Assembly: GCA_048886685.1 (NCBI GenBank)
Contig: JBHLKM010000004.1
Location: forward strand, 124,342 to 188,341
DNA length: 64,000 nt
Reading direction: 5' to 3'
Source: Candidatus Hodarchaeota archaeon
Lineage (GTDB): Archaea; Asgardarchaeota; Lokiarchaeia; Sigyniarchaeales; SOKP01
A program made the translations under genes and the position numbers. Below, piece by piece: positions 8,802 through 40,373 of this stretch (position 1 is the first letter of the stretch; every line of letters starts with the position of its first letter). Under the pieces are notes generated by a model that did no database searches, had not been told where the DNA came from, and worked only from the letters and a program-made list of their open reading frames with translations.

Positions 8802-10268
8802 TTAAATATATGTATGAATTAAATCTATAAGGTTTTTAGAAAAATCTGGTAAATTCTTCTCAATCTTTTCGATTTGGAGAGATTTTTCAATAAATAATAG
8901 CAAGTATAGATTATACTTTTCAACCTGGATTTTTTTAAATATTACTTTTTTCGATTCATCTGCTATTCCTGAAGATACTAAAAAATCTTGTTGTAAAATC
9001 TTAAATTCTTTAAACGTTTTATATAATTCTTGGAAATGAGGGGCAGAAATTTCAAATACTCTTTCAGATATTTCATCTTTAGAATAATTAGATAAAATAA
9101 TTCCATTTTCATTTAATAATAATATTGCATCTGATTGAGTTTTCTTCGCAAACTTTTTTAATTGATTTCTAAATAATTCTCGATTAGGACTAAGTTGTGA
9201 AAGCCCAAATGAATATGCTGTTATTAGGCTCCAATGATCAAAAATACTAGTTTGAAAAATTTTAATTAAAAATCTATCAGAATTCTTCTCAATTTCATCT
9301 GCAATAATCTCTAAATTTTTGAATATTTCTTTTGATCCCTTTAAATCTGGATCAAATTTATTTAAACAAACAACAATAGGAGGGAATTCCTCTAAGTCAA
9401 TTAAAGAAACTATAATTTTCCTAAAAAGGTCTAAGGCCTCTTCTATTCTCTCAACATCTTGAATATCAATAAAAAAGAAGATTAAATCCACATTATAGAG
9501 ATAAATTTTACTTTGTTCAAGAAATCTCTCTCGATATTGTTTTTGACCAGCTAGATCCCAAAGTGAGATTACAGAATTCTGCTCTTCAAAAATATTTTCT
9601 TCAGATCTTTCAACACCTCTAGTAGGTAAAGCCTTTATGATTTCTGAATATCTCTTCTTTATTCCAAACAAAAAACTTGATTTTCCTGCCTTATCCAATC
9701 CAGTTAATAGTACCTTGATTTGCCTTCTCACAGAAAATGGATCTTTTAATTCCTTAGTGAATTCAAACAATTCATTTTTTATATCATCCATTATTCTTTT
9801 ATGATCTTCAAGTTCTTTTTCTGCTTGTATCTGGCTAGCAGCCTTATCAATAATTATTCTTAAGTATTTCATATTTTCATAAAAGAAGACTCTATCATTT
9901 TCACTGATTAGTATGGTAATAGTAGCTGCTAAAGCTTGACCTCGGGCTTTTTCTTCAGGGATGAGAAAAAAGTATGTTAGACCATTTAATTTTAAGTCTG
10001 GAAACGGTAAAATACCAAAATAGTTAACACCCACGTCTGAACCTTGTGAATCTTGATAAACGGAATCACCCATAAGTAAACTGATGGTTTTCATTGCAAT
10101 TAAAAGTCCAGCTTTTTCATCTAAATCAATAGGCCAAATAACTCTAGGAATGGGCCCCTTTTCATCAAATATGCTTAGAACTATTGCTTTTATTAAATCA
10201 GATTTGTTAGCATTTTCGGTTTTTTTATTGGTTTGTTTCATTTTCGATTTAGAGTCGTTATTGGTCAA
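8802..10268 (-). CDS. uDENN/longin-like domain + Arf/Rag-like small GTPase + roadblock domain fusion
   Basis: N-terminus FDEKGPIPRVIWP and EEKARG; G1 GLDKAGKSS, G3 WDLAGQ, G4 NKFD; C-terminus AILLLNENGIILSNY. TTG start preceded by AGGGGA. Confidence 0.85.
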   Translation of the reverse strand: MTNNDSKSKMKQTNKKTENANKSDLIKAIVLSIFDEKGPIPRVIWPIDLDEKAGLLIAMKTISLLMGDSVYQDSQGSDVGVNYFGILPFPDLKLNGLTYFFLIPEEKARGQALAATITILISENDRVFFYENMKYLRIIIDKAASQIQAEKELEDHKRIMDDIKNELFEFTKELKDPFSVRRQIKVLLTGLDKAGKSSFLFGIKKRYSEIIKALPTRGVERSEENIFEEQNSVISLWDLAGQKQYRERFLEQSKIYLYNVDLIFFFIDIQDVERIEEALDLFRKIIVSLIDLEEFPPIVVCLNKFDPDLKGSKEIFKNLEIIADEIEKNSDRFLIKIFQTSIFDHWSLITAYSFGLSQLSPNRELFRNQLKKFAKKTQSDAILLLNENGIILSNYSKDEISERVFEISAPHFQELYKTFKEFKILQQDFLVSSGIADESKKVIFKKIQVEKYNLYLLLFIEKSLQIEKIEKNLPDFSKNLIDLIHTYI

Positions 10269-10432
10269 TTTATCCCCTTATCTTTGGCTATAAAGTAATA
10301 TTTTAAAAAGTACCGTATTTATTCTTTAGATTATAATATAATAAAATCAATATATTACATTAATATACTCAAAATAATAATTACTATTAAATAATTACTT
10401 TTCTCACCCAACGTTCCATATGTTTTAATCTT

Positions 10433-12232
10433 TTATGATAAAAACTTTAAACTTACAAGTTTAGATGGGAGGAATATTTTTTTTATAAAATCTACCAAAG
10501 TGAGATTACTTCTTTTTAGTTCATTTAAAGATATATACTCAATTGCTCCACTTTGGATGAAAATTTGATACTCTTCTTGTTTCTTAATCTTTTCTAATAC
10601 GTCAATTTTAGCATCTTTCCTAAAGTGAGTAGAGTTAGTATAATAAAAGATATCTCTACTAGATTGAGGTAGCGCAATTTTTGGAAAATGTTTTAAATCT
10701 AATTTCGCAAAACGGTATGGTGCTTTCTTTGAGATATTTTCACTTAAAATAAAGGATTTATCATGTATTTTAGAGAATTCTAAACATTTTTTATACATCT
10801 CACTTAAGATTTTTTTTCCCAGATTGAATGAGTTTGAATTTTCATGCAATTCAAAATCAGTTAGAAACTTAACAGCTTCATTTAATCCTATAAAACTAAT
10901 TGACATATGTTGTTCTTCTAAATTATAGAGTGATATATTATTGATTTTACCGCTACATAGCGGTAAATGTTTCGATTTTAACCTCTTTTTTATTATTTTA
11001 TATTTTTTTAATAATATCTGAGAAGATATTTTCATATTTGTATCGATTATCTCAAAGAAATTTGACTCATCTTTACTGGTATACGCAAATCGAGGAAGAT
11101 TTATACAAATTTCTTGAAGCATACCTGAATTAATAAGATTACTTGAATAAAACGACTCTGGATAATTATCATTTAAAGATTTAACATTTGAATTTATTAA
11201 AATAGGTGTTTTCATACTATCAATTTCATCACAAACATTCATAAAAGCTCCCTTATACTTATCTATCCAAAGGTTATTCACTAAAATCTCACGTATTGGG
11301 GATTTAAACGGATTTTTATTATTATCACCTTCTTTGAAGGTTAATGTCAGCGCGTTAAACAATCTTAGACACTCTTCATAATATTCTTCATAGAAATCCC
11401 TCGCTTTATTGGTGATAGGAACCTTTAAAAATGGTTCGAGAAAAGTAGGACTAGTTAACAATGAACTAGAAGAAATCGAACCACCCGTCATTACTGATAG
11501 ATGATTTAATTCGTAGATTAAGTCTTTCATTGCAAGAATTAACTCTGAATCACTCACTCCTTTAGCATAAGGTGATAAAAACATTGTTAAGTAATTATAT
11601 CCCTGGTTTCCACAAAACTCATTTTGAGTTAATGCTACCCATTTAACTAGATGACTAATTGCTTCTTTTAGAGTGCCTGCTGGTTTTAATTTACAGCAAG
11701 GGACAAAATTATTTATAGGGGGCAACCCATGTTCTAAAATTATGCGAGGATCCCACATCTGAGATAAAGGTCTTAAATCAAAATACCGTAACTTATGAAT
11801 ATGAAGATCGCCAGATAAATGAGCTGCTGATTCCTCACTCGATAAAATTCTTAAATGAGCATATTCTTCAGATATTCGATTTGCGGCCCAATTATGGATT
11901 TTTTCTGGATTAATTATTTTTTCTGGATGGTCTCCAAATCCTTTTTCAAGAATTTTTTCATAGTCCATTAACGGCATACCTATTCTCGTATATAACTTAC
12001 GTTCATTTTCAAAGTGTTGTTCAGAAAGTATAGAACAAACTATTTCTCTTATATGAGGTCCTGAGAGAAATTTTATTCCAGAACTAATAATCCTCCTAAC
12101 AACTAATTCTGTAATTTTGTTGGCATCAGCTTCGCTCATCCCAGTTTCTTTTATAATACTTTCAAGAATTCTTGAGGATTCAAATTCAGCAAAATCACCT
12201 TCGGTTCTAAAAACTTTTGGAAATAAGTCCAT
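10433..12232 (-). CDS. ATP-cone + class III ribonucleotide reductase (NrdD)-like barrel lacking the catalytic Cys loop and glycyl-radical domain
   Basis: ATP cone (FESSRILESIIKETG...LSGPHIREIV); AHLSGDLHIH; INLPRFA; SISFIGLNEAV; YYTNSTH. No MGCR loop, no C-terminal CxxC and no RxxGY. Confidence 0.8.
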   Translation of the reverse strand: MDLFPKVFRTEGDFAEFESSRILESIIKETGMSEADANKITELVVRRIISSGIKFLSGPHIREIVCSILSEQHFENERKLYTRIGMPLMDYEKILEKGFGDHPEKIINPEKIHNWAANRISEEYAHLRILSSEESAAHLSGDLHIHKLRYFDLRPLSQMWDPRIILEHGLPPINNFVPCCKLKPAGTLKEAISHLVKWVALTQNEFCGNQGYNYLTMFLSPYAKGVSDSELILAMKDLIYELNHLSVMTGGSISSSSLLTSPTFLEPFLKVPITNKARDFYEEYYEECLRLFNALTLTFKEGDNNKNPFKSPIREILVNNLWIDKYKGAFMNVCDEIDSMKTPILINSNVKSLNDNYPESFYSSNLINSGMLQEICINLPRFAYTSKDESNFFEIIDTNMKISSQILLKKYKIIKKRLKSKHLPLCSGKINNISLYNLEEQHMSISFIGLNEAVKFLTDFELHENSNSFNLGKKILSEMYKKCLEFSKIHDKSFILSENISKKAPYRFAKLDLKHFPKIALPQSSRDIFYYTNSTHFRKDAKIDVLEKIKKQEEYQIFIQSGAIEYISLNELKRSNLTLVDFIKKIFLPSKLVSLKFLS

Positions 12233-12489
12233 GGTTAGTCTTAAAGAAGTAATTTATATAATTTTAAAAAATATCTATTGAACTATTAAATTCAAGAGAT
12301 TTAAAAAATTAAATTATTAATAGGTTAAATGCGAGAATTATAGTTTATTTCATAAAAATATAAACAACTGTTTAAAAGGATAATTAAGCTTGCTATATTA
12401 TGAAATCCTTTAAAATCTCTATCAATTTATTTTTATAGAACTTCTATACTCTCTATGATTTATTTTATAAAGTTGCTAATGAGAAATAT

Positions 12490-13272
12490 ATGTCAAATTT
12501 ATACTCTGAAGCGTCTCTCCAAAATTTTTTTACTGAAATTTATTCCATATTGAAGGAAACTGATCCGAAAATAATTGAAATATGGTGTGAAATTTCAAAA
12601 ATTTCCTTTTTCAATGGATTGAGAAAAACAGAGTTATATAATTTCTTAGATAAGTTTGAATTTATATCTCTTAAAAAGGGAAATTATGTTTACTATATTG
12701 TAATTGATAAGGTTTTATTTATTATCAACTGTATCAAGTTCTTGAAGTATGATGTTGCACATCTTTCTGAAATATTGGATTATAACGGTTTTGAGTCATT
12801 AATAAAGGAAATTTTATCTAAAAATAATTTTCGGACAATTACGAATTTTAGATTTTCTGAAATTTCTAAACTATCATCAAATATTTCTCAGAAAAAATTT
12901 GAGATTGATGTTATTGGAATTTATTTAAACTATATTTTAATCATAGATGCAAAACAATGGAAGCGCAAAGATTCATATGGATCGCTTAATAAAGCAGCCA
13001 ATCTCCAATATAATCGGATTAGAGCATTGCAGCACAATGACGAAGCTTTTTCAAAGCTCATTAAAACAATTTTAGGTAAAGATCCTCAAGTGAAAAGGCA
13101 TTTACCGTTCATACTTATACCGGTTATGGTTACCCTTGAAGATAATAGCATAAAGTTAAATGAAAACCAGATACCACTCGTATCTATATATGAATTCAAT
13201 GTTTTTTTACAAGAGTTCCCAAATTATCTACATTACTTTAAATCAGTTCAAGTGAATAAAGTAGTACTATAA
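12490..13272 (+). CDS. PD-(D/E)xK nuclease-fold protein (Mrr/NERD-like)
   Basis: FESLIKEIL...FEIDVIG...IIDAKQWK. Confidence 0.7.
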   Translation: MSNLYSEASLQNFFTEIYSILKETDPKIIEIWCEISKISFFNGLRKTELYNFLDKFEFISLKKGNYVYYIVIDKVLFIINCIKFLKYDVAHLSEILDYNGFESLIKEILSKNNFRTITNFRFSEISKLSSNISQKKFEIDVIGIYLNYILIIDAKQWKRKDSYGSLNKAANLQYNRIRALQHNDEAFSKLIKTILGKDPQVKRHLPFILIPVMVTLEDNSIKLNENQIPLVSIYEFNVFLQEFPNYLHYFKSVQVNKVVL

Positions 13273-13313
13273 AAGAAAACTGAAAATTCTCACGTTAAAT
13301 TTTTAAAACAAAA

Positions 13314-14372
13314 TTATTCTTCTAAACCCAAATAGTATTTTATTTGTTTCTTTATTAGATTGATAGCAACGGAAATAATTCCACTTTTAACTTTGGGATG
13401 AGAAAATAGAATCAAAATCATATCTTTTAAACTTGGAGATTCACGATCGATAGGTGCTAAGTCTAATACCCCTTCACTTCCTTTTACACTTATAGATTTT
13501 AAAGCACCTGCGCTTAAACCATGAATAATATCCGAACCAATCATAGAAAGATTCACCCCTATCGTGCTAAATAAAGAATCTGACATCCTACTTGAAATTG
13601 CTGAAGCTAAGATTGTTCCATCTGTTTTGATAATCGCTGAAGCTTCTATTCGAGAGTCAAGCGTAATCAATTCGCGTAAAATTTCATTCATACTCGCAGG
13701 AGGGATCTTTTCTTCAGGTTTTTTTTCAATCTTAGACTCAACTACAGGTGATTCTAATTTCTTCACTGATATTTTCTTTGATAGAAAGCTTAGAACTTCA
13801 GTCATATCTTTTTCTAATCTTTTCTGTTTTGAAATAGAAACTTCAGTTTCTGGCCTCTTGGTAGGAATAGGAACTAATGTAGATTTTAGTTTTTCTTTCT
13901 CATCTTCAATAATTGATTGTTTAAGTTCTGAAAACGCATCAGAAATGGAATCTTGGGTGGTAACAGGAGGAGGTTGAAAGCCTTTTTTATCTGATATTAA
14001 TGAACTTTGAAATGGTTTTGGTGTAATTTCTTGAAGAACTTGGTTTTTATCTTGTTCAGATTTATCTTGAATTTCATTAAAAGAATCATCTTCACTAATT
14101 TCACTAGTTTCTGAGGGAATATCATCAAGATTTAATTCCATTTCTTTTGGAATTTCGTGTAATTCAATCTTTTCCTGGTCTTTTTCAACGGTTTCAATTG
14201 ATATTTCAATTTTTTCACTAGAAAACTCTTTATCAACTTTTTTCTCTGATTTCTTTTTTTTAGTTTTAACTCTAGAAGGTTTGGAAGAAATTGGCAGTAA
14301 AGCACCACATTTTCTACACGTACGACTTACTGCTTCGTTATTTGTGGTACCACAATTCTGGCAGATAATAAT
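13314..14372 (-). CDS. Zinc ribbon + low-complexity linker + roadblock/LC7 (MglB/LAMTOR-like) domain; probable ATT start at 14372 (ORF track starts at 14141)
   Basis: The open frame upstream of 14141 encodes IICQNCGTTN...TCRKCGALL with no canonical start, and GGAGG lies just upstream. C-terminus IEASAIIKTDGTILAS...LKSISVKGSEG is roadblock-like. Confidence 0.8.
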   Translation of the reverse strand: MIICQNCGTTNNEAVSRTCRKCGALLPISSKPSRVKTKKKKSEKKVDKEFSSEKIEISIETVEKDQEKIELHEIPKEMELNLDDIPSETSEISEDDSFNEIQDKSEQDKNQVLQEITPKPFQSSLISDKKGFQPPPVTTQDSISDAFSELKQSIIEDEKEKLKSTLVPIPTKRPETEVSISKQKRLEKDMTEVLSFLSKKISVKKLESPVVESKIEKKPEEKIPPASMNEILRELITLDSRIEASAIIKTDGTILASAISSRMSDSLFSTIGVNLSMIGSDIIHGLSAGALKSISVKGSEGVLDLAPIDRESPSLKDMILILFSHPKVKSGIISVAINLIKKQIKYYLGLEE

Positions 14373-14654
14373 AGTTTTATCTCTCCTCCATGAGTTTAAA
14401 TTACTAAAAAATTATTATAGGTGCTAATTTTCATAAAGTTTAGATATGAATCTTTATTTTATTTATATTAAATTAATGATTTTCTTGATTTTTAGTTTTT
14501 TGTTGTATAAATTACTAGTAAAAATTTGATTTTATTAATATTTATCATCTTAAATTAATGTTTTAATATATTCGCTGGATGTAAAGTTTGGGAGTTTAAT
14601 CTCACTAATGAAACCTACAATTTTGGAGAAATATAGTTAGATCAGTGGTTTTTA

Positions 14655-15629
14655 TTATCTATAAAGTATTTCTTTCATTATATTCGTAAACGTTTCAAAA
14701 TCCTCTTTTTGGAAAACTGGATCCTCCTTAAGTAGCAATAAATAATATGGAGTTGAATCTTTCTGTAATGAAATTTGCTTAAATATAAAATTTTTCCCAA
14801 ATCTTTGAACAATCATTCTATCCTCATATTTATTGTCCATAACGCCAGTAAATTGTATATTATCACTAAGGGTTAAAAAATAGGGCGTTGAGGCTGTCAG
14901 TAAATGCTTAGTCTCAGCATCTTTATAAAAAGAGCCAATTACAAGTGAATTATCATCAATAACTACTACACCAGCTGAATCGATTTTTTTGGCAAACTCG
15001 ATTATTGTTCTCTCAATAAGTTCTGATTTTGGATATAAGCTTAAAAGGATTTCCGACATTGCCTTAATTATGGATCCAAAATCATAAATAGATGTCTCAT
15101 AAAAGTATATTTCCTTATAATCAGTAGCACCTTTTACTTGCTCTTTTAAATCTATTGTAAGATTTTCCATTTCATTTAAAGCCCCTCTTCTTAAAGCGGG
15201 ATCATATTTGTGAAGAAAAACATAAATCGGGGGTTCAATCTCTAATTTGTTGAACTGTTCAATTACATCCTTAAAATAACTTATTGCTTCTGGTATTCTA
15301 GGTTTGTTTTGAATATCGATGACATAAATAGCAATTTCCGTACCATCGAAAAATTTTCCTGGATTCTTTAAATACGAGATTCTATAGCTAATTTGTCCAC
15401 CTAAATCCCATTCTGCAATTTCTTTTCCTAAAAAATCAAAAACTCTTCTTTGGGCACCTCTGGTTGGAGATAATACGGCTATTTTTGAAAATTCTCTTTG
15501 AAGTGAGAGAATAATACTTGTCTTTCCTGCATCGTCCAATCCCGTAAATAATAACTTTGATGGTTCCGGTTTCGGTTCCGGTTCTTCTTTTTTCAAATAC
15601 ATTATTGATTGTTTTAGATTTTTCTCCAA
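14655..15629 (-). CDS. Rag/Gtr-like small GTPase with C-terminal roadblock domain
   Basis: GLDDAGKTS, PTRG, WDLGGQ, HKYD; C-terminus GVVVIDDNSLVIGSF. Confidence 0.85.
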   Translation of the reverse strand: MEKNLKQSIMYLKKEEPEPKPEPSKLLFTGLDDAGKTSIILSLQREFSKIAVLSPTRGAQRRVFDFLGKEIAEWDLGGQISYRISYLKNPGKFFDGTEIAIYVIDIQNKPRIPEAISYFKDVIEQFNKLEIEPPIYVFLHKYDPALRRGALNEMENLTIDLKEQVKGATDYKEIYFYETSIYDFGSIIKAMSEILLSLYPKSELIERTIIEFAKKIDSAGVVVIDDNSLVIGSFYKDAETKHLLTASTPYFLTLSDNIQFTGVMDNKYEDRMIVQRFGKNFIFKQISLQKDSTPYYLLLLKEDPVFQKEDFETFTNIMKEILYR

Positions 15630-15725
15630 AGTTAAATTTCACCTTTACACATCTAGAAAGCAATTAATTAATATATATTCTTTTATAAGATAAAATATGA
15701 TCTTATCGCTTATTTAAATTTTGCT

Positions 15726-17081: not shown

Positions 17082-17099
17082 AGTTGATATTGATTAATT

Positions 17100-17618: not shown

Positions 17619-17653
17619 AATATTGAATCTATATTTATTAAATTAAAAATATA

Positions 17654-20334: not shown

Positions 20335-20352
20335 CTATGAATTTAATATGAA

Positions 20353-20727: not shown

Positions 20728-22923
20728 CTAAGCAATTAAGGGGACACTTTTATCTATGAAGATTTTGGTTATCATAAGCTCAAGAGAAGGAATATCTTTT
20801 ACTTGAATTTCCTTATTTAACCGGTAAAAATCCCTAAAAGTCTGCCAGGCATCTTTATCTTTCTGTAATTCGTCAATGAAATATCTAATCCTCTGTTGTG
20901 CCGAATATGATTGCCCCTTGTATACATAACACATCAGAAAGGGTGAAACAGAGTTCATTAGGAGAGTATGTTCACCAAAAGTAGCTCGATCAAGCCCCTC
21001 AGAGAATTTTTCATTTATAAATGAATTAATTGCTGTAAAGAAACTCCCAAGTAGATCATTCTCCAAAGACCATTGTTCAGTAAATGATTGAGAGAATATT
21101 GGTATTCCCCCTTCTGAGACAACTAAAAGTAGAACAGGATCTTCATCTGAAAGTTGAGGAGCTTCCACTACTCGCCTTCTGATCATATTCTCCAATTGTT
21201 CATTTAATCGAGCAAATTCTATACGATCTTTTATTGATGAACTTGATTCTTTTAAACTCTCCCATACATTTAATTGTTTTAGAAGATCATCATGTTCATT
21301 TGAAATTTTTATAGCTAGCAATTTAAGACCGAATTTTTCGGCGATTTGCTGAGCTTGAGTTAAAAATCGCTGAGCCTCCTTCATATCAAAGGTTAATAGA
21401 GATAATTTAGCTTTTAACAAGTAAGTTTCGCATTGAACCGAGAAAGAACCCGTATTTTCGGCAATATTTAATAATTGAGCAATAAGAGGTTTGATTTCCT
21501 CCAGTACCTCTAAGTCGTTAGTCATTCGTAACTCGGTTAAGAGCAATTCACATAAGTTAGTTAGTGTTTTTATTGTTAGCTCGTAATCTTCATCCTTATC
21601 TTCAAGAATTTGCTTCAATACTTTCTCGGATTCAGCTCTATTCTGAGCTCGAGTGCTCGTTTTCAGCAATAAAGCTTTATTTAAGAGATACCTCAAATTA
21701 TAATCTTTTTCTTTAAGCTGATTGTTTAGTTGTTCATAACGGTGAAGAAATTGTTGCGATCGTTCAAGGTCTCCCTTTTCAATTAATGTTTGAATTAAAT
21801 AATCGTAAATACTAGCCAGACGTCTTAAATTTCCCGAATCTTCATATAGCGCCAAGCATTGTTCTATACACTCTAAAGCACGATCTAATTCTCCTCTCTG
21901 TCTATAGGCTTCCCCCATATTATTAAGAACACCAGCAATCCACCTTTTAATGTTAAGGTCACTGAAAATTGTCAACGCTTGCTCATAAAGCTTAATACCA
22001 CGATCCAAATCACCTTTAAATATATATACTGCTGCCATACTATAAAAAGAAAATCCGATAAGCCATTTAATGCCACTTTCCTCGGCGATAATCATTCCTC
22101 GTTCCAGGGTTTTTAAAGCACGATCTAATTCTCCTCTCCTTATATAGGCTAAGCCCCTATTGTTAAGATGAATTCCGATCATAAATTCATTGTTAATACT
22201 ATTGAAAACTGCTAAACCCCGATCCGAAAACATTAAACCAAGCTCCAAATCACCTTTACCATAATACTTAACAGACATACTACTCAAAGAATATCCGATA
22301 ACCCATTTATTACCACTTTCCTCGGCAAGTGGCCTAGCTTGCTTGGAAAATTTTAAAGCTTGATCATAATCGGATTTCAAAAAAGTATATACCCAAGAAA
22401 TTGCTATAAGGGTAATAGTCATATCCTTTTTAGCGTTAAGTTCTTCTCGTAACGCTAAACTATACCCAAGATGCTTTAATGCTTGATCAGCTTCATCTAT
22501 TAATATGTAATACCAACCCTTAAGATAAGCTAAATAAGCCTTTCTTTTCTTATAATCTTCTGATATCTCTTGCGGTGAAACCTTTAGCAGTCCTTCTACT
22601 TGTTTAATAATATTGTTAAGTTTATCCGATTGTTTATGCCATACTAAAGCATCGGCCATTCTAAGTAAGATATCGACTGACAGGAGGTTTTTTTCTAATC
22701 CTAAACTCTCTTTATATGTTTGTTCAGCAAGTGTAATAACATCTTTATGTAAACCTCTCCAAAATAAAAGATCACATTTGAGGAGATGAGATAAAACAAT
22801 ACTATGAAGAGAGTGTCCTCCCTTTTCCTCGAAGTTTTTAAGTAATTGATTCGCTTCATCTAATTTACATTCTTCAAGGAGTTGTTTTATAAGAATTAAT
22901 TCCTTAGGTTCTAAATAAGACAT
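20728..22923 (-). CDS. Tetratricopeptide-repeat protein with C-terminal longin-like domain
   Basis: About 40-aa TPR/MalT-like repeats (LNNMGEAYRQRGELDRAL); C-terminus LLVVSEGGIPIFSQSF...LLGSFFTAINSF. Confidence 0.9.
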   Translation of the reverse strand: MSYLEPKELILIKQLLEECKLDEANQLLKNFEEKGGHSLHSIVLSHLLKCDLLFWRGLHKDVITLAEQTYKESLGLEKNLLSVDILLRMADALVWHKQSDKLNNIIKQVEGLLKVSPQEISEDYKKRKAYLAYLKGWYYILIDEADQALKHLGYSLALREELNAKKDMTITLIAISWVYTFLKSDYDQALKFSKQARPLAEESGNKWVIGYSLSSMSVKYYGKGDLELGLMFSDRGLAVFNSINNEFMIGIHLNNRGLAYIRRGELDRALKTLERGMIIAEESGIKWLIGFSFYSMAAVYIFKGDLDRGIKLYEQALTIFSDLNIKRWIAGVLNNMGEAYRQRGELDRALECIEQCLALYEDSGNLRRLASIYDYLIQTLIEKGDLERSQQFLHRYEQLNNQLKEKDYNLRYLLNKALLLKTSTRAQNRAESEKVLKQILEDKDEDYELTIKTLTNLCELLLTELRMTNDLEVLEEIKPLIAQLLNIAENTGSFSVQCETYLLKAKLSLLTFDMKEAQRFLTQAQQIAEKFGLKLLAIKISNEHDDLLKQLNVWESLKESSSSIKDRIEFARLNEQLENMIRRRVVEAPQLSDEDPVLLLVVSEGGIPIFSQSFTEQWSLENDLLGSFFTAINSFINEKFSEGLDRATFGEHTLLMNSVSPFLMCYVYKGQSYSAQQRIRYFIDELQKDKDAWQTFRDFYRLNKEIQVKDIPSLELMITKIFIDKSVPLIA

Positions 22924-23758: not shown

Positions 23759-25264
23759 ATGGAGGAATTATTCAAAACTTCAATTATCAAGGGATTAATT
23801 TTTTCATCTTACGGAGATTTAGGTCCACAACCAATTTATGTATGGCCTAAATATTATACCGATAAAGAGATAGAAATTGTTAAAGAAGAGAGGGAAAAAC
23901 AAAACCTTCTCACTCTAACAACTAGAGATGTTACACAAATCTCAATTAAAAACCTTAGTTTGTTTATTAGTGATAGAGCATTTACTCCAGATATAGATAT
24001 TCAAGGTTTAATGTATTTTGCCATCTTACCTTATCCTGATTTCAATGCAACATCTTTAACATATTTTCATTATATCAACACTGGTCCTTCTAACTCCCAG
24101 ATTCCTACAGCTTTTTCAATCTTAGTTGATGAAATTAGTAGAAGTTTTTTATATAATAATATAAACAGAATTAAACCTATTGTTATTGAATTTTTTAAAA
24201 CTTTTGATAATAAATTAACTGATGGGTTTCCACCTCAATTGGAGATAGAATCTGCATTTCATGATTTATTCAAAAAAATTATAGAGATCGAAAGAAATCC
24301 ATCAACTCCAATTACTACTCATCGAAAGATGAAGATTTTATTTGCTGGGCTTGACGATAGTGGTAAAACAAGTTTTTTACTTTCTGTAGATCGAAAATAT
24401 AGTAAGTTGATTGGATTAAAACCTACTACTGGTGCTAGTATTAAATCAATAGAAGCTTTAGGAGCAACAATCTTTTTATGGGATTTAGGTGGACAACTAG
24501 AATTTAGAAAAAAATACATTAGTAAAGCAGAAATATATTTATATGAAGCAGATTTATTATTTTATTTTATTGATATCAGGAATAAAATTAGATTTGAAGA
24601 AAGTATTGAATATCTTCTTGATTTAAAAAGAGTCTTAAAACAATTTAATCAAAATACTCCGATTATCTATATTCTATCAAAAGGGGATTCTGATATTATA
24701 AAAACTGGGGAAATTATAGAAAATATTGAAACTATTAGAAATAGTTTAACTGAAATTTCACCAGAAGAACCACCTGAAATATATGTGACTAGTATTTTTC
24801 AGATATTTACAATATTAAGAGCCTTCTCTTCAGGAATCTCAAAATTAAGTCCTAACAGAAATCTTATCAATCATAATCTTAGGAATTTCTCTTTAAAAAC
24901 TAACGCTTATTTAACTCTATTGTTAAGTGTAGATGGGTTGGTTTTAGCAGATTTCTATTCCCCAAAAGCGAAAAAATTGACAAGGTTACCTGAATCCGAG
25001 GAATTAGTTAATGTTTTTGAGATAACTGCCCCACAATTTGCTATGTTATTCAAAATTTTCTCTAGATTCAAGGCACTACAGGAAGAAGAAGCAATCTTTA
25101 AAGTAGCAGATTCAGTGATACTTTTCAGAAGGGTTCAAGCAGCAGAAAACGATATGTTCATGTTATTTCTGATTGATAACGAAAAAAGAAAAGAAAAAAT
25201 AAATGCTAAGCTAGTTGATTTCCTTGGTCAAACAAAAGATCTTTTATTAAGATATATTGCTTAA
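23759..25264 (+). CDS. uDENN/longin-like + Arf/Rag-like GTPase + roadblock fusion (paralogue of 8802..10268)
   Basis: SYGDLGPQPIYVWP; ILPYPD; GLDDSGKTS, WDLGGQ, atypical G4 SKGD; shared linker LSPNR; LLLSVDGLVLADF. Confidence 0.85.
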   Translation: MEELFKTSIIKGLIFSSYGDLGPQPIYVWPKYYTDKEIEIVKEEREKQNLLTLTTRDVTQISIKNLSLFISDRAFTPDIDIQGLMYFAILPYPDFNATSLTYFHYINTGPSNSQIPTAFSILVDEISRSFLYNNINRIKPIVIEFFKTFDNKLTDGFPPQLEIESAFHDLFKKIIEIERNPSTPITTHRKMKILFAGLDDSGKTSFLLSVDRKYSKLIGLKPTTGASIKSIEALGATIFLWDLGGQLEFRKKYISKAEIYLYEADLLFYFIDIRNKIRFEESIEYLLDLKRVLKQFNQNTPIIYILSKGDSDIIKTGEIIENIETIRNSLTEISPEEPPEIYVTSIFQIFTILRAFSSGISKLSPNRNLINHNLRNFSLKTNAYLTLLLSVDGLVLADFYSPKAKKLTRLPESEELVNVFEITAPQFAMLFKIFSRFKALQEEEAIFKVADSVILFRRVQAAENDMFMLFLIDNEKRKEKINAKLVDFLGQTKDLLLRYIA

Positions 25265-32740: not shown

Positions 32741-32835
32741 AAATTGCTTAAAATCAAAAAAATTAAATTTCAAAAAATATTTCACAATTTAAATTTCTCA
32801 CTAACTAAAAACACTATTTTTGGAGATTTCTGATC

Positions 32836-33111
32836 ATGACTAAAGGATTTAGTGATGAAGTTAAAACTGCTTTTGAAACTGTTGAGGAGCTTTTAAATGG
32901 AATGTTAGGAGATCGAAGTGTGCCCCGAAACATAAAACGGGTGGCTCAAAGGAGTATTGATGAATTACATAAGGAAGATGAGACCCCGGGTGTGATTTCC
33001 AGTAATGTAATGTATATGGTTGATGATCTTGCTCAGGACGCTAATATTCCATTTCATGCGCGCACTACAGTTTACCGAATTATTTCAATATTAGAGAACA
33101 TTAAAGATTAA
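32836..33111 (+). CDS. UPF0147-family protein
   Basis: DRSVPRNIKR...DANIPFHARTTVYRIISILE. Confidence 0.9.
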   Translation: MTKGFSDEVKTAFETVEELLNGMLGDRSVPRNIKRVAQRSIDELHKEDETPGVISSNVMYMVDDLAQDANIPFHARTTVYRIISILENIKD

Positions 33112-33242
33112 AAAAGTGTATAAACGATTCTCTTTCTACTTATTTTTTAACCAATTATTTATTAAACCGAAAGGTCATATAATAAGTTAAGATTATATCT
33201 TTTTCCAATAAATTATACGAATTAATTTGGTGGATTATACTT

Positions 33243-33956
33243 TTGGCTATAGAAGATATAAATGGATGGGTTGATGGTATTACCGCAACCGGAGTAGTTC
33301 TTCTTGGTATCATATTCGGTTTATTCTTCATCTACAAATCACGAAAAACTGGTGCAAAACTACTTTTATATTTAGGCTTAGCAAATGTACTTGCAGGATT
33401 AATGTTTTTAGGAGTATTCATGGATTTCTTATTTGTTATATTATTAAAAGAGAATATAAAAAACAATGGAACAGTTGCCATATTATCATATATCTGGTTT
33501 GCGCCTGTTATTATTACTGCAATGTATATTGGAACAGAACTTTTAATACCAAAAATAAAACTACATATCTTTATAATAGTTTTAATTATCTCCATATTCT
33601 TTGAGATAATAATCTTCATGGATCCTCTAAATTCTTTTAATTTTAATCCAGAACCACCAATACCACAAACTGAAAATTTAATTGATTATAATGTAAATTT
33701 ATTTACCCTAGCAGGTATGGTGATGGGAGGTTTACTATTGGTTGTTATAATCTTTCTTGGGTTAGGATTTCTCTTAAAAGGTTTGAAATCTTCAGGAGTA
33801 ATAAGAAAAAATTTCTTGTTCTTATCAGGAGGTTCTTTATGCTTCTGCATATTCGGATTACTAGAAGGATTGACAGTTCCTGGATTTCTTGTGATTGTAG
33901 TGAGGATAGGTTATCTTAGCTCATTTTGGCTGATGTATCTTGGATTAAAAGATTAA
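33243..33956 (+). CDS. Stand-alone seven-TM membrane protein
   Basis: Seven hydrophobic segments, a Pro-rich loop between TM4 and TM5, and no soluble domain. Confidence 0.75.
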   Translation: MAIEDINGWVDGITATGVVLLGIIFGLFFIYKSRKTGAKLLLYLGLANVLAGLMFLGVFMDFLFVILLKENIKNNGTVAILSYIWFAPVIITAMYIGTELLIPKIKLHIFIIVLIISIFFEIIIFMDPLNSFNFNPEPPIPQTENLIDYNVNLFTLAGMVMGGLLLVVIIFLGLGFLLKGLKSSGVIRKNFLFLSGGSLCFCIFGLLEGLTVPGFLVIVVRIGYLSSFWLMYLGLKD

Positions 33957-34070
33957 CGCAATTTTTTTTTCTTATCGATCATTATTTATAGTATTAAATT
34001 TTATTACTAGTTATATTAACATTATATCCAAATAATTACAATTCGGTATTATCAACGTTTTTTATCTATC

Positions 34071-35111
34071 ATGGAAAGGCAAATAATCAAAGCTCTTATA
34101 TATAGTAATTTAGATGATGAAATCGGCCCTAATCCTAAAGCATATTCTCCCCAAGATTTTTCTCAACTAAATCTATTGCATATTAGTGTTAAAACTTTTG
34201 CAATTCTTACAGGTGAGAGAGGAATGATACCTGAGTCTTTAGTTATTTTACCATTTCCATCTCTGCAATTAAAAGCTTTGATTAAATATATTCAATGGAA
34301 AGATCCTGATATACGAGGAGGTATTGGTCAATCTAATATAGCTTTATTATTTCAAGAGATGGATGATGTAATTTTCTATAAGTACTTGAAAGAATTTTCA
34401 AATACTTTTGACGATATTGCTCAAAATATTGCTTTCTTAGAAAGATCCAAGGCAAGTAAAGAGGAATTTGGTGATGAATTAAAAAATCTTGAAGCTTCAA
34501 TAACAGAGCTTATAGAAAAATTAAAAAATCAAGAACTAACAGAATATAGGATTGAGGCATTAGCAGAGGAAATAGATAGAAGTTTGATTGATTATCAATT
34601 CAAGATAATAGTTGTAGGAGATCCAACTGTTGGAAAAACAAGCTTAATCTTAAGGTATACTAATAATGCGTTCAGAAGATCATATGTATCAACCCTAGGT
34701 GTTCATGTTTCAAATAAGATATTTAAAACTGAAGACTCCACTATTATCCAGCTTGTTTTATGGGATGTAGGGGGTCAAGAAAGGTTTAAACTTATGAGAA
34801 AACAGTTTTATCAAGGATCTGATGCTATTCTTTTGGTTTTTGATTTAACTAACCCTGAAACTTTTAGCAATATCCCCGTCTGGTTTTTAGATATAAAGAA
34901 ACAGATTAATAAGCTGGATGAAGATTTTACAGGTTATATCATTGGAAACAAAAAAGATTTAAAGGAGGATATAAAAATAACTGCTGATAATGCTCAAAAG
35001 CTAGCCGATCAAATGAATTTAAAATATCTTGAAACTTCTGCTTTATCTGGGGAAAATGTAGATTATGCCTTCACAACACTCGCAAAATTCCTTTACGAGT
35101 CGCGAAAGTGA
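34071..35111 (+). CDS. uDENN/longin-like domain + Rab-like small GTPase
   Basis: LDDEIGPNP; DPDIRGG; GDPTVGKTS, YVSTLGV, WDVGGQERF, GNKKD, ETSAL. Confidence 0.9.
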   Translation: MERQIIKALIYSNLDDEIGPNPKAYSPQDFSQLNLLHISVKTFAILTGERGMIPESLVILPFPSLQLKALIKYIQWKDPDIRGGIGQSNIALLFQEMDDVIFYKYLKEFSNTFDDIAQNIAFLERSKASKEEFGDELKNLEASITELIEKLKNQELTEYRIEALAEEIDRSLIDYQFKIIVVGDPTVGKTSLILRYTNNAFRRSYVSTLGVHVSNKIFKTEDSTIIQLVLWDVGGQERFKLMRKQFYQGSDAILLVFDLTNPETFSNIPVWFLDIKKQINKLDEDFTGYIIGNKKDLKEDIKITADNAQKLADQMNLKYLETSALSGENVDYAFTTLAKFLYESRK

Positions 35112-35271
35112 TAAAGAATGAATTTTTCGTGAAAGGTTAGTTTCACGACCAATCAAATTGATTTAGACTTATAATGATAAATATGATTCAATCTTTTATT
35201 ATTTATATCCTATAAGATGAACTCATTTAATCATGAAAAAACTATTTTATATATAACTGCACTCAATAATT

Positions 35272-36303
35272 ATGTCTGAAGAGATTATCAAGGCAATCAT
35301 ATATATTTCGCTTGACGAGTCCATAGGACCCAATCCTCTTTTATGGATTCCACTTGATTTATCAGAAAGGATTAGAATGGGAGTAAGTATTAAGACTATT
35401 ACTATGCTTACTACAGATCAAGGAATCGTTCCTAATTCATTAGTCATTATGCCGTTCCCTGCATTCAAATTAAAGGGAATTATCAAATATATTGAGAGAG
35501 AAGATAATTCTCGACGAGGGGGGATTGCTTTGTCATCAATTGCTCTATTGTTTAATGAGGCAGATGATCTTATTTTTTATAAGTACATGGATTATCTTGA
35601 GCCTGCGTTTTCTAAATATGCAGAAAATATCATTGAATTAGAAAATGCAAATGTAAATATTGATGATATATTTGTTGAGATAAATAAACTTCGAAGTGAA
35701 TTATCAGGTATTCTTAAAGATTTGTATAATAAAGAGAAAGCGACTTTAGAGTTAGAAGCTTTTCCTGAGCAGAAAGAAATAGGGGAAGAGATATTAGAAT
35801 TTGTTTTTAAAGTGGTGGTATGTGGTGATCAGGGTGTTGGTAAAACAAGTACAATATTGCGGTTTACTGATAATGCTTTTATGCGTACGTACGTCCCAAC
35901 ACTAGGTGTAAACATTACAGAAAAGGTAATAAAAGTAAAGGATAAACCTGTTAATTTAATTCTTTGGGATATTGCAGGTCAAGCTAAATTTGAATTAATG
36001 AGGCGACACTTTTATCAAGGCGTTAATATAGTTATTTTAATATTTGATCTTACAAACCCTAAATCATTGGAGAATGTATCTAAATGGTACAATGATATAA
36101 GAAAATATCAAAGGGAATTTATTGGTTTCATTTTGGGAAATAAAGAAGATTTAGTTGATGAGAGAAAAATCCTTTTTGAGGAAGCTTTAAAGATAGCTGA
36201 AACTCTAAACCTTAAATATTTTGAGACATCTGCAAAAACTGGTAAGAATATTGAAGAGAGTTTTTATAAGATAGCAGAAACTTTAGTTAAATCAAATGAA
36301 TAA
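35272..36303 (+). CDS. uDENN/longin-like domain + Rab-like small GTPase (tandem paralogue)
   Basis: LDESIGPNPLLWIP; DNSRRGG; GDQGVGKTS, YVPTLGV, WDIAGQ, GNKED, ETSAKTG. Confidence 0.9.
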   Translation: MSEEIIKAIIYISLDESIGPNPLLWIPLDLSERIRMGVSIKTITMLTTDQGIVPNSLVIMPFPAFKLKGIIKYIEREDNSRRGGIALSSIALLFNEADDLIFYKYMDYLEPAFSKYAENIIELENANVNIDDIFVEINKLRSELSGILKDLYNKEKATLELEAFPEQKEIGEEILEFVFKVVVCGDQGVGKTSTILRFTDNAFMRTYVPTLGVNITEKVIKVKDKPVNLILWDIAGQAKFELMRRHFYQGVNIVILIFDLTNPKSLENVSKWYNDIRKYQREFIGFILGNKEDLVDERKILFEEALKIAETLNLKYFETSAKTGKNIEESFYKIAETLVKSNE

Positions 36304-36322
36304 TTAAAAATCAGATGAAAAA

Positions 36323-36898
36323 ATGAATATAGAGGATATTATTTATAGGAGGAGAACAATCAGAAGATTTAAACAAGAGCCGATTTCTTTAGATACATTA
36401 AAAAAATTAATAGATTTTGCTCGGGTTGCTCCTATGGCAAGGAATGTTCAAGCACTTGAATTTATTATCGTTGAGAATGCTGAAGTAAGGGAAAAATTAT
36501 TCCCATTAGTAAGTTGGGCAGGATCTTTACCTGCAGATCAAAGAACACCTGAAAATGGAAGAGAACCCACTGGTTATATTATAGTTTTAGTAAATACTAA
36601 AATCAAAAAGGTATATGTAGATTTTGATGTAGGTGCTGCCGTTGAAAATATATTACTTGGAGCAGCAAGTTTTGGGATCGGAACTTGCTGGATGGGTGCA
36701 ATCAACTTTAAAAAAATAAGAGAATTATTTGAAATCCCTGAACATTATGATATAAAACAGGTAATTAGTTTAGGATATCCTGATGAAGAATCGGTTATGG
36801 AAACGTACAAAGATTCATTTACATATTGGAAAGATTCTAATGGAAAGATGCATGTTCCCAAAAGGGAATTAGATGATATAATTCTTAAAACATACTAA
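36323..36898 (+). CDS. Nitroreductase-family protein
   Basis: RRRTIRRF, APMARNVQ, DVGAAVENILL, GIGTCW, LGYP. Confidence 0.9.
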   Translation: MNIEDIIYRRRTIRRFKQEPISLDTLKKLIDFARVAPMARNVQALEFIIVENAEVREKLFPLVSWAGSLPADQRTPENGREPTGYIIVLVNTKIKKVYVDFDVGAAVENILLGAASFGIGTCWMGAINFKKIRELFEIPEHYDIKQVISLGYPDEESVMETYKDSFTYWKDSNGKMHVPKRELDDIILKTY

Positions 36899-36941
36899 TT
36901 AGTAATTTCTTTAAAAAATTTAAAAAGGAATAATAAAAAAA

Positions 36942-37535
36942 TTATTTAACTTCGATTTTCTTCTTTTCTTTTTTCTCTTCTTCTTTTTTAGGTAATTTCA
37001 GAGTTAATATTCCCTTTTCAAGCTTAGCGTCAATATTCTCCTCATCTATATTTTCAGGGATCATAAAACTTCTATGATAACTTGCACTGTGATATTCTCT
37101 CCTGACATAACCATCTTTCTTCTCTTCATGTTCATTCTTTTGTTCTCCTTTAATCTCTAAAACACCATCATGAACTGAAATTTCTATGTCACCCTTATCT
37201 ATACCGGGTAATTCAGCAGTAATACTATAATTATCACCATTATCCGTTATATTTGTGAGAGGTGTTCGGAAAAACTTCTCTTCGTCAAAAATTTTAAGAT
37301 TAAATGGCTCAAAATCCCAGAATCTAGAAGGTCTCCATAAATTGTTGAAATATCTATCTAAATCATCAAATAAATGGTCAAATCTTTTAAATATCGAAAG
37401 TGGTTTGTAGCGTCTTAACTGAATTGCACCTTTTTTAACATCCTCTTTAGGATGTTCTTCTTCTTTAATATCTATGCTTTCTTTTTCTTTTATATCTGAC
37501 ACAATTTTTACCTCCATTATTTTGTTTATTGTCAA
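36942..37535 (-). CDS. Small heat-shock protein (Hsp20); start probably GTG 37502
   Basis: AELPGI, GVLEIKGE, AKLEKGILTLKLPK, KIEVK tail; GGAGGT precedes GTG 37502. Confidence 0.93.
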   Translation of the reverse strand: MTINKIMEVKIVSDIKEKESIDIKEEEHPKEDVKKGAIQLRRYKPLSIFKRFDHLFDDLDRYFNNLWRPSRFWDFEPFNLKIFDEEKFFRTPLTNITDNGDNYSITAELPGIDKGDIEISVHDGVLEIKGEQKNEHEEKKDGYVRREYHSASYHRSFMIPENIDEENIDAKLEKGILTLKLPKKEEEKKEKKKIEVK

Positions 37536-37714
37536 TCATGCATTGGCAATCCATATTTAACATATATTGATTTACATATTTAAATGTTTTGTTTAAATCC
37601 AATATTATTAAAAATAGATAGTCTGATATGAATAATCCTTTTGATTGAAATATAATTGCTATTACAATTAACCGCTTTGTACTATTGAACCAATATTAGT
37701 AGAGTAAATAGTTT

Positions 37715-39388
37715 TCAATTAGTAATTTCTTCTTCTTCTACGTTTAATAATAATTTGAAAGTACTCCCTTTCCCAAATTTGCTTTTTACTAGAATATCTC
37801 CTCCTAAAAGATTTGCTAATTTTTTAGAGAGATGAAGTCCTAGGCCACTCCCTTCTTCGAATTTCCCAGATTCATCAATTCGACTAAATGGTTTAAATAA
37901 TTTTTTTATATCTTCTTTTTGTATTCCTAGTCCAGTATCTTTAACTGAGATAACAATTTCCCTTTTTGATGTTCGAACTTTTATCGTAATTATTCCTTTA
38001 TCCGTGAATTTTACTGCGTTTCCAATTAGATTTAAAAGAATTTGGTTTATTCGCTTCTTATCATTGTAGATTGTAAGATGTTCGGGAGTATCCATGAACA
38101 TTTCTAGTTCTTTTTCCTTAATAGCAACATCAAATGTATCTTTCAGGATAGCTAGCTCATTTATAAGATCAAATCTCTGTTTTCTTACGTTCAATTTATC
38201 AATTTCTATTTTAGCAATATCAATTACGTCATTAATTAATTCATGTAAATGATTTGCGCTATTTAGAATAATATTAAGCTGCTTTTCTTGTTCTTTATTT
38301 ATTTCTCCAGTTCTACCCTTCAAAATCGTATTAGCAAAACCTATAATTGAAGTTAATGGCGTTTTTAATTCATGACTTATGCTTGCTAAAAAATTAACTT
38401 CTTGTGGTCTAGTAAACATTGCTAAAAAATCAGCTTTAAAATCTTCATCAGCTTCATGTGTTTCTTGACTTACCGAAACAATTTCAGATTTTATATCTCT
38501 TATTATTAAAAGAAATAAGAAGAGTATATAGAAAAAGGCTATAAAAAACATAATGATAAACAATGGATTAAATCCTTCCGGAATTCCTTCTACTATATCA
38601 ATAAATATCAAAGCTATGAGGATAGGAAAAGTTAAAATAGCGAATGATAACCAATAAGTTAAAGCTCGAGAAATAATCTTAGGATTAATAATTATTGGTA
38701 ATATAATTATGCAGCAACCTAACATAAAAAGAATCGGACTCAATTCTAATGGGTAAACATCAATCTTTTTATGAGCTCTTTCTGCTAGTACTAATGAAAT
38801 CATGAATAAAATAAATCCGAACAATAAAAATGAAGAAACAGCCTTAAACTCAAGATGTGACCACTTTGTATAAAGATATAAGATAAATGGAACAAGGATT
38901 ATTAATGCGGGAAATAAAAATATATTAAAAATACCTCTTGTCAAATCATAGTCAAGAGATAGAATCTCTATTATTATTATAATTATTATAATAATTATAA
39001 AACCTGTAGTGAGAAGGAATTTTGTTCGCTTTATTATTATTTCGAAAGCCAATGCGAAGATCATACCTGCTAATCCAACCAAGATATAACTTAACGTGCC
39101 GAAAAATTCATAATCTGCTGTATCCGAATAGAAACCGCAGAAAAAAAAGTTATTAAACTCAATTACTTCGAGTTGAAGAACTTGGAAGAATGTGAAAAAC
39201 AAACTAATTGCAAAACCAAGAGGTAAACTTGCTAGTCCTAACATAATGATTCTTTCATTAAAGACTTCTCTTTTTCGAGCTATATGTATAAAATATAAGC
39301 CACACATTATTGCTATTATAAAAGCAGTCCCCCACAAAAATCGTTCAAGGGGATTCCATATCATTACCGGTTCATTCGGACATGCCAT
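37715..39388 (-). CDS. Multi-TM sensor histidine kinase (HisKA + HATPase_c)
   Basis: About 10 TM segments; H box FLASISHELKTPL, N box NLIGNAVKFT, G1 DTGLGI, F box LFKPF, G2 GSGLGL. ATG 39388 preceded by GAGG is preferred over 39451. Confidence 0.93.
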   Translation of the reverse strand: MACPNEPVMIWNPLERFLWGTAFIIAIMCGLYFIHIARKREVFNERIIMLGLASLPLGFAISLFFTFFQVLQLEVIEFNNFFFCGFYSDTADYEFFGTLSYILVGLAGMIFALAFEIIIKRTKFLLTTGFIIIIIIIIIIEILSLDYDLTRGIFNIFLFPALIILVPFILYLYTKWSHLEFKAVSSFLLFGFILFMISLVLAERAHKKIDVYPLELSPILFMLGCCIIILPIIINPKIISRALTYWLSFAILTFPILIALIFIDIVEGIPEGFNPLFIIMFFIAFFYILFLFLLIIRDIKSEIVSVSQETHEADEDFKADFLAMFTRPQEVNFLASISHELKTPLTSIIGFANTILKGRTGEINKEQEKQLNIILNSANHLHELINDVIDIAKIEIDKLNVRKQRFDLINELAILKDTFDVAIKEKELEMFMDTPEHLTIYNDKKRINQILLNLIGNAVKFTDKGIITIKVRTSKREIVISVKDTGLGIQKEDIKKLFKPFSRIDESGKFEEGSGLGLHLSKKLANLLGGDILVKSKFGKGSTFKLLLNVEEEEITN

Positions 39389-39473
39389 ATTTTCGTCCTC
39401 TCTATACAAATTGAATGTTACATTTAAATTTAATAATAACATAAATATCAATATTATTCATGAGGGAGTTAAA
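39389..39473. promoter_or_regulatory. Divergent promoter region shared by the histidine kinase and receiver genes
   Basis: 85-bp AT-rich spacer between head-to-head starts, with a TTTAAATTTAATAA tract and an SD-like purine run before each start. Confidence 0.5.
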
Positions 39474-40373
39474 ATGAAACCTTTAATATTAATAGTTGAA
39501 GATGACCCAAATATTTTAAAATACCTTAAAATAACATTAGAATTTAATGAGTGCCAAATTATTACAGCAGAAAATGGAAAAGAAGGATTAAAAGTTCTTT
39601 CGGAGTTAAAAAACACCCCTGATCTTATTATAAGTGATATAATGATGCCAGAAATTAATGGATATGACTTTTTTAATACAGTTTCTAATAATCCTGCTTA
39701 TTATCACGTACCGTTCATCTTTTTATCTGCTCTTGATTCTCCTGAAGATGTCCGACTAGGAAAAATGCTTGGAATTGATGATTATCTCACCAAACCCATT
39801 AATGAGGAGGACCTACTGGCAATAGTTGCTGGTAAAATTAAACGTAGTAAAACAAGCAGTTTGATTAATAAAAAAATTACGGAAATTTTTGGTTCATATG
39901 AAATTGAAAAAGAAAATATTCTTGATGAGCATAAAGATTTAATAATATTAATAGAAGTAGAATGGGATGACGTTGTAGGTCCAAAAATTGTGAATAGCTT
40001 CCCGAAAGATATCAAATTAGACTTTTCACTCAAAAAGATTGGTGAAGAGCTCTATGATGGAGTTGTAGCAATGTATGGTCAGGATAGCATATTAGATGCT
40101 GATGGTTTTTTAGTACCTAAAAAGAATATTAATATTATGGCATATGTGTTTTTTGATTCTTATCCTGATAGTTCTTATAGAGGGGGAAGAAAACAATATA
40201 TGGTTTCTCTTATTGCTACAAAGATTACATATTTCCAATCATTAAAATTAAAGCAACTATTTATAGAACAATCTTCATTATATAAAAATCAAGATAAATG
40301 GGATATTGAAGAATTTTGGAATAAGGCTTCGGATATCCTTACAAAATCATCATTAATTACCGGTTCTAATTGA
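39474..40373 (+). CDS. Response-regulator receiver fused to a uDENN/longin-like domain
   Basis: ILIVEDD, PDLIISDIMMP, FLSA and DDYLTKP form an intact REC domain; then EWDDVVGPKIVNSFP and DSSYRGG. ATG 39474 follows GAGGGAG; the track's start at 39192 overlaps the kinase. Confidence 0.9.
   Translation: MKPLILIVEDDPNILKYLKITLEFNECQIITAENGKEGLKVLSELKNTPDLIISDIMMPEINGYDFFNTVSNNPAYYHVPFIFLSALDSPEDVRLGKMLGIDDYLTKPINEEDLLAIVAGKIKRSKTSSLINKKITEIFGSYEIEKENILDEHKDLIILIEVEWDDVVGPKIVNSFPKDIKLDFSLKKIGEELYDGVVAMYGQDSILDADGFLVPKKNINIMAYVFFDSYPDSSYRGGRKQYMVSLIATKITYFQSLKLKQLFIEQSSLYKNQDKWDIEEFWNKASDILTKSSLITGSN

Follow-up and report, generated by a model that had tools for sequence, protein, structure and literature searches.

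Is a longin domain that recurs in five proteins of an Asgard archaeon an arginine-finger GTPase-activating protein (GAP), like the longin-containing GAPs of eukaryotes? The question is raised by a stretch of 64,000 nucleotides (the window) from Candidatus Hodarchaeota archaeon, class Lokiarchaeia (contig JBHLKM010000004.1, positions 124,342 to 188,341), where the domain is joined to Rag-like GTPases, Rab-like GTPases or a receiver domain. A preliminary description of the window had proposed that the five proteins share one FLCN/SMCR8-like longin, and that they preserve an ancestral fusion of a longin GAP to its GTPase. Our answer, which we consider probable, is that the domain is an arginine-finger GAP, which works in longin pairs and targets a fused or neighbouring GTPase. 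Such an off-switch for small GTPases may be older than eukaryotes. The five genes, all intact, are the following.

Gene A, 8802..10268, minus strand: 488 residues; longin (about residues 25-153) with Arg109 (codon 9942-9944), Rag-like GTPase and predicted roadblock-like C-terminus
Gene B, 23759..25264, plus strand: 501 residues, paralogue of A; longin with the Gly-Pro (GP) motif and without the Arg loop, Rag-like GTPase with SKGD as G4, and predicted roadblock-like C-terminus
Gene C, 34071..35111, plus strand: 346 residues; longin with Arg82 (codon 34314-34316) between strands 4 and 5, long helix and Rab-like GTPase
Gene D, 35272..36303, plus strand: 343 residues, tandem paralogue of C; longin with Arg82 (codon 35515-35517) and Rab-like GTPase
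Gene E, 39474..40373, plus strand: 299 residues; receiver domain and C-terminal longin with Arg236 (codon 40179-40181)

The partner domains named in the preliminary description are those assigned by Pfam: Gtr1_RagA in A and B, Ras in C and D, and Response_reg in E. Its nine quoted motifs are all in frame in the genes to which they were attributed, each of the four GTPase fusions has one copy of I(L/M)P(F/Y)P, with no other copy in the window, and the arginine codons that it gave for A, C and D are correct. The GTPase of A extends from residue 185 onwards with G1-G5 intact, and its DxxGQ is retained by every fused GTPase in the window. The receiver of E has an intact acidic pocket, phospho-Asp and Lys. 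The roadblock of A and B is predicted from alignment with a Rag-roadblock gene at 14655 (listed below) and from the published LGR layout.

The shared longin domain

Pairwise similarity of the longins reaches E values of 1e-13 to 1e-44 among A, C and D, and of 1e-15 between A and B. A profile built from the other four domains alone gave no match to the longin of E at E 10 in a leave-one-out comparison. Profiles that contain no receiver-fused rows match it at 3e-10 and 4e-7, and such a profile matches B at 5e-11. Since E is still matched by profiles free of its own type, its homology is real, and on these comparisons the recurrence of the longin across the five genes is true homology.

A profile search over 1.84 billion representatives returned 769 matches, and the family alignment comprises 148 domains with a mean column identity of 22%. 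Only Gly19 (97%), Pro27 (96%) and Arg82 (95%; gene C numbering) exceed 90% conservation. The GP motif lies between strands 1 and 2 and is present in all five domains; A, C, D and E also have the arginine, located between strands 4 and 5. Against PDB sequences, the 148-sequence profile matches 8YQG (E 8e-8), residues 57-187 of SMCR8 (E 6e-4) and the N-terminus of NPRL2 (E 0.009). In the alignment to SMCR8, whose motifs quoted in the preliminary description agree with the PDB sequence, GP falls on G68-P69 and the arginine on R147, which is the arginine finger and corresponds to FLCN R164 (10.1101/2020.04.16.045708). The folliculin sequence itself went unmatched by both profiles up to E 10 and, as a result, FLCN R164 can be reached only through this published equivalence. 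The Pfam Folliculin family (PF11704) scores 13.8 bits on gene A (E 0.053), below its curated cut-off of 23.3 bits, and matches 17 of the 148 homologues at E up to 0.05, the best at 1.8e-5.

The longin of C, modeled alone with AlphaFold2, has a predicted local distance difference test (pLDDT) score of 92.9; the other four domains are placed by homology. The model consists of five strands and three helices, with the arginine between strands 4 and 5, the position that it also occupies in Avl9-type GAPs. A fold search with full-length C is dominated by the GTPase domain, and the longin-only model was used for ranking. The closest fold (VIA) is 8YQG, with Z 16.5 and a root-mean-square deviation of 2.1 over 128 residues, followed by Lst4 (Z 11.7), chain H of the folliculin complex 6NZD (11.5), NPRL2 (11.4), C9orf72 (11.1) and a SEA subunit (10.5). 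SMCR8 (8.9), DENND1A (8.3), GAF/PAS-type sensors (about 8) and adaptin longins (7.5) rank lower. Foldseek and Atlas agree with this result, Atlas giving template modelling (TM) scores of 0.76 to SMCR8 and C9orf72 and 0.71 to NPRL2. Profiles and the predicted fold together show the shared domain to be an Asgard form of the longin with GP motif and arginine finger found in FLCN, SMCR8 and NPRL2; a likeness to FLCN and SMCR8 had been suggested. It belongs with the GAP longins rather than with folliculin specifically.

Conservation and loss of the arginine

The arginine is present in all 119 homologues of A, in 119 of 120 homologues of C/D, and in 112 of the 114 single-longin representatives scored. 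The lineage of B differs: RG is found in the loop of none of 121 sequences (B and 120 homologues), which extends to the whole lineage the earlier observation that 23759 has GP and no Arg loop. GP and the first helix are conserved in these sequences, SKGD is kept at G4 in 112 of the 121, and the switch I position is variable. Two distant B orthologues in a sister family also lack the Arg loop. Judged by these alignments, the B lineage is a stable loss of the arginine; decay of a single copy is ruled out by intact orthologues, 60-88% identical, across two families. The arginine is not required for folding, since members without it (8YQG and lineage B) retain the fold.

Most genomes of two families contain both A and B. 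In one genome assembled as a single contig (G157), A seems to be missing at a place where a scaffold gap lies beside B. In Sigynarchaeum and CR_4 one such Rag-fusion gene was found, with the arginine present, and in the tree B forms a long branch nested among Arg-bearing Rag fusions. The history of A and B is most simply explained if an Arg-bearing gene was duplicated and one of the copies then lost the finger.

Combinations of Arg-bearing and Arg-less longins also occur elsewhere. A Helarchaeota record (L195, G219:C52) carries tandem longin-Rab genes like C/D, with the arginine in the first copy only. Eight proteins (P0263, P0299, P0344, P0352, P0364, P0366, P0386 and L194) consist of an Arg-less longin followed in tandem by an Arg-bearing one, and have no GTPase; by their sequences they are candidate single-chain pairs of a catalytic and a non-catalytic longin.

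Fused and neighbouring GTPases

The longin domain is carried by 25 open reading frames of the genome. Two of these encode proteins of the order longin, Arf-like GTPase, longin, PAS, PAS, HATPase, at C18:69866-72703 (L008) with both arginines and at C9:733-4191 (L007) with only the second. This layout is a candidate for a longin pair and its putative Arf-like substrate in one chain, wired to a kinase-type output. The fused GTPases thereby comprise three classes, Rag-, Rab- and Arf-like, the same three on which eukaryotic longin GAPs are reported to act. As Arf-like GTPases are fused as well, the argument from fusion is stronger than in the preliminary description.

A quick tree of 130 columns groups the domains by partner: receiver-fused (support 99), second Arf-flanking (97), first Arf-flanking together with free domains (96), and Rag-fused (96). 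Rag-fused and Rab-fused domains unite only at support 86. Because the domains separate by partner, fusion to a GTPase occurred more than once, which strengthens the argument from partners and weakens that for an ancestral fusion. Full-length A-type genes are found in the organism's own order and in CR_4; five genomes from three further families of the class yielded none. C-type genes are known from records of Promethearchaeota, Sigynarchaeum, CR_4 and Helarchaeota. No close C-type fusion is among the best 150 of about 1,100 matches in 80 genomes outside the class, a search that missed a known distant fusion (G025) and so excludes only close ones. Outside the class the domain is common and mostly free or joined to a receiver; one longin-Rab fusion with the label Heimdallarchaeota, MFQ6125646.1, is an exception and belongs to a different longin clade. 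The GTPase fusions are mostly concentrated in Loki/Hel lineages and look like repeated secondary events within Asgard lineages, which mark classes of partner and not an ancestral state. The proposal that they preserve an ancestral fusion is therefore not upheld.

Three Rab-like proteins of 339-372 residues in family f18 were considered as longin fusions and rejected, their N-terminal domain being different and without a profile match. Further architectures include a longin-Rab-TIR fusion of 525 residues (P0272) and a longin-TrmB fusion of 518 residues (P0336). Several proteins of 2,300-2,700 residues, and one cut by a contig end, have a related domain close to the C-terminus (C20:48742-64919, C6:7095-15092, C16:77189-84142 and C31:1-3651), of which only the first hairpin matched the profile. 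On the contigs of L191 (G219:C83) and L189-L190 (G025:C51), receiver-longin and longin-GTPase genes are surrounded by a high density of genes for small GTPases.

Three further genes in the window bear on the partners of the longins.

Stand-alone Rag-like GTPase without roadblock, 40416..40970, plus strand: 184 residues, starting 42 bp after E; Pfam Gtr1_RagA E 7e-19; candidate substrate of E
Membrane histidine kinase, HisKA and HATPase_c (Pfam), 37715..39451, minus strand: head to head with E, start codon uncertain; candidate phosphodonor
Rag-like GTPase-roadblock without longin, 14655..15629, minus strand: between A and B; possible extra partner or substrate

An orthologue of the 40416 GTPase adjoins the orthologue of E at all 19 of the closest genome loci (own locus included) and at all four metagenome loci, the metagenome scan with E having yielded only four full-length relatives. 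At these loci the GTPase is 58-81% identical and lies in tandem or convergent orientation, and the adjacency survives an inversion. By comparison, a random 3.4 kb segment of the genome holds a GTPase gene 7% of the time, and two of 14 other receiver genes have one within such a distance. As the loci are kin, they count as one conserved pair and not as 23 independent events. A homologue of the N-terminal part of the 37715 kinase lies divergently in nine of the 19 E-orthologue loci.

Within one block, A, B and C/D are syntenic across the family, alongside unrelated metabolic genes, whereas E lies outside this block in relatives. For this reason the 31 kb span does not represent a functional cluster, and a dedicated cluster of the five genes is ruled out. 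In the related blocks that were read, the 14655 Rag-roadblock gene remains close to A or B. It is followed by a gene for a 275-residue protein with an acidic low-complexity N-terminus, a roadblock-like C-terminus and no Pfam match; the two genes, which together span window 13314-15629, stay adjacent in the same blocks. The window also holds an NrdD-like protein (10433-12232; Pfam NRDD E 2e-65), shortened or broken in some relatives (L045, L051, L056), and a 731-residue TPR protein (20728-22923), whose last ~130 residues are longin-like by eye and do not match the GP/Arg profile.

A probable GAP role, its alternatives and known systems

In the mechanism that we favor, two longins would pair, as in 8YQG and the eukaryotic complexes, and the pair would bind a GTP-loaded small GTPase. 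The arginine between strands 4 and 5 of one longin would then complete the active site together with the switch II glutamine of the GTPase. The probable target in C and D is the Rab-like domain to which each longin is fused, acted on inside a homo- or heterodimer. A and B would most likely form a heterodimer in which A supplies the arginine and B is non-catalytic, like SMCR8-C9orf72. For E, the pairing of genes suggests that phosphorylation of the receiver by the divergent kinase could gate GAP activity on the 40416 GTPase. A GAP role is favored because the closest folds are GAP longins, because of the position and conservation of the arginine, and because the fused partners belong to three known substrate classes. 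It is also favored by the chains with two longins, 31 of 32 of which have lost no more than one arginine (19 have both, 12 have one and one has none), compared with 112 of 114 single-longin chains that retain theirs, by the tandem longin-Rab pair of the Helarchaeota record, and by the lasting adjacency of E and 40416.

Several points weigh against this mechanism. The arginine is conserved equally in receiver fusions and in GTPase-free proteins, so its conservation alone does not tie it to the fused GTPase. The DENN and winged-helix parts of the eukaryotic subunits are absent from all five chains, whose remaining length is occupied by GTPase, roadblock or receiver. A and B lie on opposite strands, separated by 13.5 kb, and are linked as part of a generally syntenic block; distant receiver-longin paralogues have a GTPase within 1.5 kb in only one of ten cases. 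The count of two-longin chains reflects about three independent losses and is biased, as Arg-less single domains score lower and fall outside the best 150. The deep branches of the quick tree have supports of only 86-88, and no GAP assay on any Asgard member was found in the literature searched. A prediction of the complex of A-longin, B-longin, GTP and A-GTPase scored 0.00 with controls that did not fold, and counts neither way on binding.

The same features could be read differently. If the longin pair were an effector, it would sense or scaffold the GTP state, perhaps binding the GTP form through the arginine, and relay it to kinases, receivers or membranes without faster hydrolysis. Such a role would suit the Arf-PAS-HATPase, receiver and TrmB fusions, the many GTPase-free proteins and the number of domain-bearing proteins, about 25 per genome; the lysosomal FLCN complex, in its inactive form, binds Rags non-catalytically, and the majority of other longin dimers serve as guanine nucleotide exchange factors (GEFs) or platforms. 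We nevertheless regard it as unlikely, given that the nearest folds are GAP longins and not GEF or adaptin longins, and that the domain has both features, GP and the strand 4-5 arginine, that mark the GAPs FLCN, SMCR8, NPRL2 and Avl9.

Less likely again is that each fusion is a monomeric, self-inactivating GTPase that uses its own arginine in cis and preserves the ancestral state. The well-conserved longin-GTPase linkers of A and B, a predicted template modelling (pTM) score of 0.73 for the two-domain model of C, and the precedent of Avl9, a single-polypeptide DENN GAP, are in keeping with this. However, eukaryotic longin GAPs need two longins: the longin of SMCR8 by itself shows no GAP activity unless C9orf72 is present (10.1101/2020.04.16.045708), which makes a one-domain self-GAP doubtful, and FNIP2 V146 is needed alongside FLCN. 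Avl9, in turn, depends on a cDENN part that these chains lack. The spacing from the arginine to the P-loop also varies among the fusions (81 versus 101-103 residues), the fusions are polyphyletic and mostly Loki/Hel, and a constitutive GAP in cis leaves scant room for switching. We consider it highly improbable that the Arg loop has another conserved job, such as binding a phosphorylated ligand, a lipid or a dimer partner, with GAP use a later, eukaryotic development. The arginine is indeed retained regardless of the partner domain, and the fold resembles that of GAF/PAS-type sensors, but GTPases are suggested as the ligand by the recurrent fusions to GTPases of three classes and by the stable pairing of E with 40416.

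If a longin-pair GAP is correct, the chemistry of folliculin, GATOR1 and C9orf72-SMCR8 would predate eukaryotes and be wired to two-component signalling. A broader version is more tentative, and we would not yet call it probable: Lokiarchaeia would possess a full set of arginine-finger longin GAP switches acting on Rag-, Rab- and Arf-like GTPases, A-B would be the two-chain equivalent of a Rag heterodimer with an attached pair of catalytic and non-catalytic longin GAPs, arisen by duplication of one Arg-bearing gene, and E would couple histidine-kinase phosphorylation to GAP activity towards a Rag-like GTPase. In this version, Lokiarchaeia would provide the first arginine-finger GAP known from a prokaryote that is homologous to FLCN/SMCR8/NPRL2.

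The pieces of this picture, namely the motif, the longin-GTPase layouts and the two-component fusions, are already published separately; no paper linking them was found in literature mostly outside subscription journals. Asgard "Folliculin/SMCR8 longin domain-containing" proteins with the GP motif and an arginine finger were described by Novak Vanclova, Jackson and Dacks (Traffic 2025, PMC12290439), who propose possible GAP activity and common ancestry with the eukaryotic GAP longins. The inference that the finger mechanism is older than eukaryotes had thus been put forward already in that paper. Their set of a heimdallarchaeial reference and 14 proteins comes with no GTPase fusion in the main text and leaves an ArfR or Rag partner open; here the same domain, with the same GP and arginine, is fused to Rag-, Rab- and Arf-like GTPases. 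The arrangement of genes A-D, an N-terminal longin followed by a GTPase with or without roadblock, was described as LG and LGR in Prometheoarchaeum MK-D1 (Tran et al., Commun Biol 2024, PMC10933270). That work neither assigns the longin to the FLCN/SMCR8 type nor notes an arginine finger; according to its supplement, GAPs may be needed by these GTPases. The NPRL2-like longins fused to two-component domains that were reported by Liu et al. (10.1101/2020.10.19.343400) correspond to gene E and the PAS-HATPase fusions; their main text mentions no arginine finger, GAP role or conserved adjacent Rag-like GTPase. Our analysis adds the Arf-like GTPase between two longins, A and B as a predicted catalytic/non-catalytic pair, and the conserved E-40416 neighbourhood. 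The first of these papers asks which GTPases the Asgard GP-motif longins target, and the second finds it hard to pair Asgard GTPases with GAPs from genome layout; the fusions and the E-40416 pair name candidate enzymes and substrates in small soluble proteins.

The closest solved structure, 8YQG, is the homodimeric longin of a Lokiarchaeota roadblock-longin protein, and differs in lacking the arginine and in having a roadblock as partner domain. It is one of several deposited, unpublished Loki Rag and longin structures (8YQG, 8YL2, 9M28), and no accompanying paper, or paper on LokiRag, was found in the literature. The five chains are unlike the monomeric DENN GAPs (Avl9, DENND6A), as they offer no room or match for the switch-binding cDENN subdomain. 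The eukaryotic longin GAPs are C9orf72-SMCR8, acting on Arf and Rab8/11, FLCN-FNIP on RagC/D, and NPRL2-NPRL3 of GATOR1 on RagA/B. As judged from sequence and model, the Asgard proteins differ from these in having the longin joined to a GTPase or receiver instead of to DENN or winged-helix domains. They share the longin fold, the GP hairpin, the strand 4-5 arginine aligned to SMCR8 R147 and, by prediction for A and B, a catalytic and a non-catalytic paralogue. Gene B, without the arginine finger, is unlike the catalytic subunits FLCN, SMCR8 and NPRL2. C9orf72 likewise keeps GP and lacks the arginine (PMC12290439), and the duplication of A and B with loss of one finger parallels SMCR8 and C9orf72.

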